The notes beneath the pieces are model-generated. The model was not told the DNA's origin. It saw only the letters and a program-made list of their open reading frames with translations, and did no database searches. A stretch of 64,000 bases of DNA from Eledone cirrhosa. Its lineage: Eukaryota. The stretch lies in NCBI GenBank assembly GCA_964016885.1, contig OZ024754.1, positions 38,998,001 through 39,062,000 on the forward strand, given 5' to 3'. The first letter of the stretch is position 1, and the number at the start of each line of letters is the position of its first letter. Of the stretch, positions 55,112-55,505 are shown one piece after another. Made by a program: the position numbers and the translations under genes.

Positions 55112-55505
55112 TATATTAATAAGAGGAATTCCAACTTTGTCTGATTTACTCGTTTTATTTACAATCCTTTAAAATATATATAATGGTATTATAATGAAAT
55201 AGTATGATAGAATATTAAATTCTAAGTGTTAATTGAACAAGTACTTTCATGCTTTCGCAATCTTCAGGTTCATGATATGTGGTGACAGTCGAGTTTGCAA
55301 TTTTCAACTGTGAAAATTGCAAACTCGACTGTCACCACATATCATGAACCTGAAGATTGCGAAAGCATGAAAGTACTTGTTCAATTAACACTTAGAATTT
55401 AATATTCTATCATACTATTTCATTATAATACCATTATATATATTTTAAAGGATTGTAAATAAAACGAGTAAATCAGACAAAGTTGGAATTCCTCTTATTA
55501 ATATA
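55112..55505. mobile_element. Perfect 195-bp-arm palindrome in (TA)n carrying two opposed minimal hammerheads (Penelope-pLTR-like)
   Basis: Arms at 55112-55306 and 55311-55505 around the loop ACTG. Confidence 0.85.
55345..55383 (+). ncRNA. Minimal type I hammerhead ribozyme (mirror copy on the minus strand at 55234-55272)
   Basis: TGAAC-CTGAAGA-T-TGC-GAAA-GCA-T-GAA-A-GTAC-T-T-GTTCA: 5-bp stem I, GNRA-capped stem II, and a 1-bp stem III with palindromic AGTACT. Confidence 0.75.

Follow-up and report, generated by a model that had tools for sequence, protein, structure and literature searches.

Head-to-head ends of Penelope-like elements (PLEs) that carry hammerhead ribozymes have already been published, as the cited passages of three reports make clear (PMC4209133, PMC3846280 and PMC8557442). 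Arkhipova et al. 2013 (PMC3846280) describe pLTRs that are inverted or stand alone, a 31-bp tail that is not always present, and palindromes at the junction, which they interpret as self-priming on an antisense template and not on a folded-back cDNA. An inverted 5'-truncated PLE copy with a tail of 30–40 bp on one end, together with a bias for microsatellites including (TA)n, is reported in the corresponding part of Craig et al. 2021 (PMC8557442). Dual minimal hammerheads on opposite strands, about 100–700 bp apart, were tied to truncated PLEs and showed low cleavage even as dimers in the data cited from Cervera and De la Pena 2014 (PMC4209133). For the anole element PAc, the cited results indicate that the hammerhead is protein-assisted and dispensable for insertion in vitro, and that both ends of the tail are RT start sites (Frangieh et al. 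2024, PMC11167929). Retrozymes are defined as tandem repeats in the cited portion of a recent preprint (bioRxiv 10.64898/2026.07.22.740005). The mechanism that gives rise to the inverted repeats and tails of PLEs is stated as open in the passages cited from PMC8557442 and PMC11167929, and searches of open-licence papers turned up no high-copy family in which a single fold-back base serves in two registers.

The window, that is, the whole 64,000-nt stretch of Eledone cirrhosa DNA analysed here, is microsatellite-rich animal DNA. By exact base-by-base extension, two fully complementary arms of 195 bp (55112–55306 and 55311–55505) were found around the 4-nt loop ACTG (55307–55310, + strand), forming a perfect palindrome of 394 bases set within a TA repeat; the runner-up among the window's perfect inverted pairs measures 54 bp. 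The final 4 nt of the right arm (TATA) merge into (TA)8 at 55502–55517, the right portion of the microsatellite target, which overlaps the end of the arm by those 4 nt. The left copy continues for 49 nt beyond its arm (55063–55111, − strand) and reaches (TA)18 at 55026–55061, the left portion of the target; (TA)n is also found at the end of other copies of the repeat. The extension is present on one side only, the flanks beyond the two arms differ, and the whole insertion comes to only about 443 bp. The mismatch-free arms, the 4-nt loop, the direct entry of the right arm into (TA)n and the further run of some 50 nt on the left, all of which an earlier note on this DNA had claimed, were thus borne out.

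The two halves of the insertion are not equivalent. The left copy of the pLTR-like end (55112–55311, sense −) comprises the arm, the loop and T55311, and the family runs on after this last base. Its 49-nt tail is the long 3' end of the element, where other contigs also have their loose ends, and includes a 6-bp hairpin with the loop ACCC (55079–55094). The right arm (55311–55505, sense +) is an inverted copy that lacks the tail and ends at the short 3' end of the family. Apart from the palindrome itself, no further copy of the arm and no direct repeat of it was found in the window, and no ORF was found in the palindromic unit.

A 39-nt minimal type I hammerhead motif, identical in both arms, is read outward from the loop on each strand: the left copy lies at 55234–55272 (−) with the predicted cut 3' of the U at 55239, and the right copy at 55345–55383 (+) with the predicted cut 3' of the U at 55378. 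The cores begin at −55267 and +55350, and the two predicted cut sites are 139 bp apart. The motif consists of a 5-bp stem I (TGAAC/GTTCA), the core CTGAAGA, a U10.1.U11.1 closure, a stem II of TGC/GCA with a GAAA loop, GAA and the palindromic AGTACT. Inspection of the motif and a scan for minimal type I hammerheads confirmed the claim that each arm has an intact copy with these parts; the search that had been proposed as a check gave a divided answer. The scan detected four sites in the window, while 30 local shuffles gave 0.03 on average and at most 1; yet no Rfam model, hammerhead included, reached its gathering score anywhere in the 64 kb. The matches at E ≤ 1 were all to sub-threshold miRNA and snoRNA models, the best of these weak matches being an miRNA model, and were dismissed as generic hairpin matches. 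Scans for the exact hammerhead motif gave 0 matches in metagenome contigs and 0 in viral contigs.

The description of the locus as two opposed ribozymes holds in that the motif is present on both strands, but it is really one motif copied twice: on either strand a single motif is in sense, and the other is present as its complement. Pairing of the two within the same RNA is thus impossible, and their cooperation as a dimer in a single transcript was ruled out. The predicted energy was −4.2 kcal/mol for the monomer, −13.8 kcal/mol for a dimer of catalytic topology, −16.4 kcal/mol for the best dimer and −314.8 kcal/mol for the whole palindrome, and the pairing probability of stem I in the single-arm RNA was predicted to be 0.01. 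As judged from these folding models, the hammerhead would need a dimer or a protein for cleavage; a read-through RNA would be expected to fold as a 195-bp duplex that buries the motif, and the ribozyme would then be silent.

When the locus was compared with the described systems, it matched a PLE insertion on every structural test and is a probable PLE derivative. The features of EN+ PLEs found here are a hammerhead in a terminal repeat near the 3' end, a head-to-head inverted 5'-truncated copy, a one-sided tail with two alternative 3' ends (at 49 nt, longer than the quoted 30–40) and a microsatellite target. Truncated EN+ PLEs, as portrayed in the cited passages of PMC3846280 and PMC8557442, share with it the head-to-head truncated copy, the tail on one end, the junction palindrome, a pLTR of about 200 bp and a microsatellite target with no discernible TSD; the present locus differs from them in having no ORF between or beside the copies, a 49-nt tail instead of one of 30–40 and a total length of about 443 bp. 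A linked RT/GIY-YIG gene was not found in the unit, which has no ORF, or in the 10–29 letters seen upstream of 55311, and no GIY-YIG match to Pfam was obtained for seven of the window's 100 ORFs. In one of these seven a match of another kind was recorded: a 393-aa frame at 62185–63366 (+) matches RVT_1 and a PHD finger and is a LINE-like fragment with no link to the palindrome.

The opposite-strand pairs, as far as the cited data of PMC4209133 describe them, resemble the present pair in being minimal type I motifs whose palindromic helix III lends itself to dimers and in their spacing (about 100–700 bp there and 139 bp between the predicted cuts here). In those pairs helix II has 7–8 bp, a G10.1-C11.1 pair and a bulged base, whereas here it has 3 bp and a U.U closure. 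Set against the metazoan PLE consensus for minimal hammerheads given in the same source, the motif agrees in the palindromic 15.2–16.2 and loop 3 (AGTACT) and in the 5-bp helix I (4–5 bp in the consensus); it lacks G10.1-C11.1, has no additional base between positions 9 and 10.1, and has a short helix II in place of a long one. The U.U closure of stem II is known in other natural hammerheads, according to the sections cited from PMC3088659 and PMC7229834. The Poseidon element PAc of the green anole, in the cited part of PMC11167929, is similar in having a hammerhead upstream of two 3' ends that bound a tail and in its AT-rich targets, and a stem-loop with an A/C loop is present in the tail here; in PAc, however, the ORF starts in stem II and the RT start lies about 85–92 nt after the cut, whereas here there is no ORF, and the distance from the predicted cut is 127 nt to one end and 176 nt to the other. 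The animal non-LTR retrozymes, in the portions cited from PMC7229834 and bioRxiv 10.64898/2026.07.22.740005, are likewise short, AT-rich, non-coding, PLE-related and abundant and carry a type I hammerhead, but they are arranged head-to-tail in tandem instead of head-to-head with a tail; no head-to-tail tandem hammerhead units were found at this locus within the window.

Contigs of public runs were placed on 55062–55345 as a survey of the family. Among the 24 runs listed, 20 have some words in common with the stretch and four have half or more of them; the word shares of 0.05–0.16 in 12 runs (9 of them RNA-labelled or RNA-guessed, with a share of only 0.05) are no measure of expression or range. 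Four of the 24 runs were used. Contig matches numbered 2279 in run X1 (organism A), 1343 in X4 (organism B) and 32 in X6 (organism D), whereas the 0 reads from about 1% of the raw-read run X21 carry no weight. The repeat is therefore abundant in two organisms at least and occurs in a third as well, although summed contig depth does not equal copy number. The cleavage base of the hammerhead is U, with CUU as the predicted site, and CUA accounts for about 24% of the X4 depth. Seventeen positions proved variable (at least 5% in any run), all of them outside the 34 positions that form the stems and the core (post hoc P = 0.033), which are thus kept in homologous copies. Inside the motif two changes were seen, both in X4: position 17 has A for U, and loop II has gained one A. 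Both should be tolerated under established hammerhead rules.

The survey also located the ends of the family. Among the departures listed (18 of 234), contigs left the long end for microsatellite sequence at 55063, 55065 and 55067 in X1 (35, 9 and 8 contigs) and at 55074 in X4 (19 contigs), and left at 55112 in 33 contigs of X1 and 28 of X4, where the consensus ends in (TA)n. Because other contigs leave at the same points into microsatellite or (TA)n, the long and the short end of the insertion are both family-wide 3' ends. Past 55311 the sequence continues in 16, 12 and 2 contigs (30 in three runs) with a 10-letter start in common, although only 10–29 letters of family sequence are visible upstream of this base. 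Some copies therefore extend upstream of the fold-back point, and the loop and T55311 are family sequence of the tailed copy. As an observation apart, strand-switch joints were recorded elsewhere in the family in single contigs of X4 (55096/55190 and 55175/55220), as were internal skips, so that other inversion or deletion forms exist.

These placements bear on the parentage and age of the insertion. The palindrome is likely the stump of a Penelope-like retrotransposon. In the retroelement reading of the earlier note, the PLE-type pLTR end, the minimal dimer-type hammerhead and the inverted partial copy were upheld; the non-coding parent was not, given the 30 contigs in which copies continue upstream of the centre. 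The locus may thus be what remains of a coding PLE after truncation at its 5' end. The insertion is likely young, as had been proposed, judging from 0 mismatches in 195 (upper 95% bound 1.5%), a figure that carries no date.

Long perfect inverted arms in a TA target would also be left by a MITE or fold-back DNA transposon with (TA)n as its target, in which the hammerhead would be present by chance or through an old capture; a TA duplication is possible inside (TA)n. Such an element should, however, have symmetric inverted repeats at both ends, and here one terminus is 49 nt longer than the other. Copies of the family stop at either of two outer ends, some run on beyond the centre, and the hammerhead is intact and conserved. 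This origin is considered extremely unlikely.

The junction of the palindrome was then defined to the base. The junction in the window is accounted for by a strand end at T55311 paired with A55306, which leaves the 4-nt loop. A variant with one extra T behind 55310, seen in nine X1 contigs (10% of the summed depth at that base) and in one X4 contig, is accounted for by the same strand end paired with A55307, which leaves a 3-nt loop. The fold-back thus occurs at the same base in two registers, and fold-backs at this base are found in contigs of two organisms. The 5' edge of a predicted 8-bp RNA hairpin (55285–55311, −; −7.1 kcal/mol) falls exactly at the fold-back point. A classical snap-back with a 5-bp DNA stem at 55285–55311 as the primer was also considered and rejected, since it would leave a loop of 17 nt instead of the 4 nt observed.

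Taken together, the locus is best read as two head-to-head hammerhead-bearing repeat ends in (TA)n that arose when the short cDNA made by a PLE RT folded back and copied itself, to which we give a probability of roughly 0.57. A PLE RT/GIY-YIG protein encoded elsewhere would have nicked (TA)n, and the cDNA would have begun at the long (tail) end. Synthesis would have halted at 55311, probably at the 5' end of the RNA or at a strong stop. The terminal T would then have paired with one of two adjacent As (with a loop of 4 nt here and of 3 nt elsewhere) and primed the copying of the cDNA. Finally, the new strand would have been resolved at the short end, which is rich in TA, and connected to the other side of the target. 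The hammerhead would be an inherited pLTR passenger. In its favour, other copies show each of the two outer ends again, with (TA)n behind it, and a second junction register exists at the same stop. The loop belongs to the tail-bearing copy because the family continues past 55311, and a snap-back predicts just such ownership. Against it, a single base pair is a weak primer, the tail exceeds the quoted length, helix II departs from the published PLE consensus, and no RT or GIY-YIG gene was found in the unit. The arms, the tail, the recurring ends and the two registers fit the snap-back that the earlier note had put forward, and it remains the likeliest origin.

The same PLE origin could also have involved priming twice, with a cDNA begun on each nicked target strand, one from the long RT start site and the other from the short one; both products would have stopped near the 5' end of the RNA and been joined head to head by 1-nt microhomology. 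Such a scheme is favoured by the cited results on the anole PLE protein (PMC11167929), which cuts and extends both target strands, is a predicted dimer and has two RT start sites that bound the tail, and by the fact that at each end of the present insertion a 3' end shared across the family abuts (TA)n. Both junctions, however, leave one copy complete to 55311, with loops of 3–4 nt that are compatible with a hairpin. Identical arms are merely permitted by two priming events, whereas they are required by a snap-back; this argument is weak, since 740 of the 2279 X1 contigs are at least 99% alike. Two priming events are the main rival reading, though a clearly less probable one.

Depth across the junction was relevant to a further possibility, namely that the palindrome was multiplied as a unit, together with its junction, from one master copy or a few. 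Over the 35-nt stub of the right arm in X1 (a run that may be the assembly's own sample), the depth fell from 70,437 to 45,660 across three bins. As contigs that are wholly internal would give a flat depth, at least about a fifth (∼21%) of the loop depth seems to cross the junction in X1. Relative to the depth where the left arm ends, the stub reached 35% in X1 as against about 1% in X4; these figures, which would favour an inherited palindrome, are rough, since 190 X1 contigs fit two places. The two junction registers at the same stop speak against inheritance, the full-length RNA would be a 195-bp duplex and hence a poor template, and the tail-less end matches a family-wide 3' end and not a random truncation. 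We regard inheritance of the palindrome as improbable. A self-copied cDNA is still preferred to it.

A fold-back chimera of a single-arm insertion, formed in the assembly or the library, would explain arms with zero mismatches. Moreover, among the pieces listed (24 of 3682), no contig with at least 31 letters on both sides of the exact junction was found, and the nearest bridging piece (record 8) has 27 letters on the right with seven differences and one gap. In a chimera, however, the flanks would not be expected to differ past the arms, nor the mirror to stop exactly at a family-wide end, as they do here, and fold-backs at the same base are present in contigs of two organisms. Further evidence came from the window itself, in which a similar build recurs three more times in unrelated sequences (local scores of 16–27, with no similarity found among the four hairpin loci). 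The hairpin at 8069–8180 has 52-bp perfect arms and an 8-nt loop; its right arm runs into (TA)10, and a 77-nt extension on the left (from 7992) leads to (TA)16. No intact hammerhead core was found in 7992–8180. The hairpin at 29188–29290 has 40-bp perfect arms and a 23-nt spacer; its left arm adjoins (TA)14, and a 57-nt extension on the right (to 29347) leads to (TA)18. At 12898–12987, two opposed minimal hammerhead cores (CTGATGA...GAAA) lie 14 nt apart in arms that are identical at 35 of 39 positions, the left arm adjoining (GA)10; this insertion has the same build but is older and belongs to a different family. A palindrome with a one-sided extension is therefore a common build in the DNA of this window, and at least one case has aged. 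The diverged arms of the aged case, unlike those of a fresh chimera, argue against an artefact, which is judged very unlikely for the palindrome at 55112–55505.

Several other features of the window were recorded. A short open frame crosses the extension of the hairpin at 29188–29347. At 12752–12826 (+), a short segment between (TA)11 and (TA)6 holds another type I hammerhead motif, in which stem I has 8 bp and the stem II region is long. Degraded palindromes at 15295–15931, 33818–34119, 43096–43308 and 3745–3894 are 83%, 76%, 92% and 73% self-complementary, respectively, and the first three are made of repeats present elsewhere in the window. A 6-kb TA-rich microsatellite array occupies about 37100–43000, a minisatellite of 56–59 bp in about 15 copies occupies 53312–54287, and 200 N bases near 25400–25600 mark a scaffold gap. 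The frames at 2775–3429 and 11215–11667, which gave no Pfam match, are presumably LINE ends by their resemblance, and the other repeats of the window appear to resemble those of octopus genomes.

In an animal genome rich in PLEs a locus like this is nothing unusual, and the fixed fold-back point is the one detail that deserves follow-up. A high-copy family with one fold-back base and at least two registers could separate snap-back from two-primer models by genome sequence alone. Insertions of this type can also pass for MITEs, miRNA hairpins or assembly chimeras. More tentatively, the family may be a non-autonomous mini-element of about 250 nt, made from a PLE end and with a fixed RNA 5' end at the fold-back base, from which perfect palindromes are rebuilt at many (TA)n sites; such a family of hairpins could feed dsRNA silencing. 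If this were true, the copies would record, one by one, how the inverted repeats of PLEs form.
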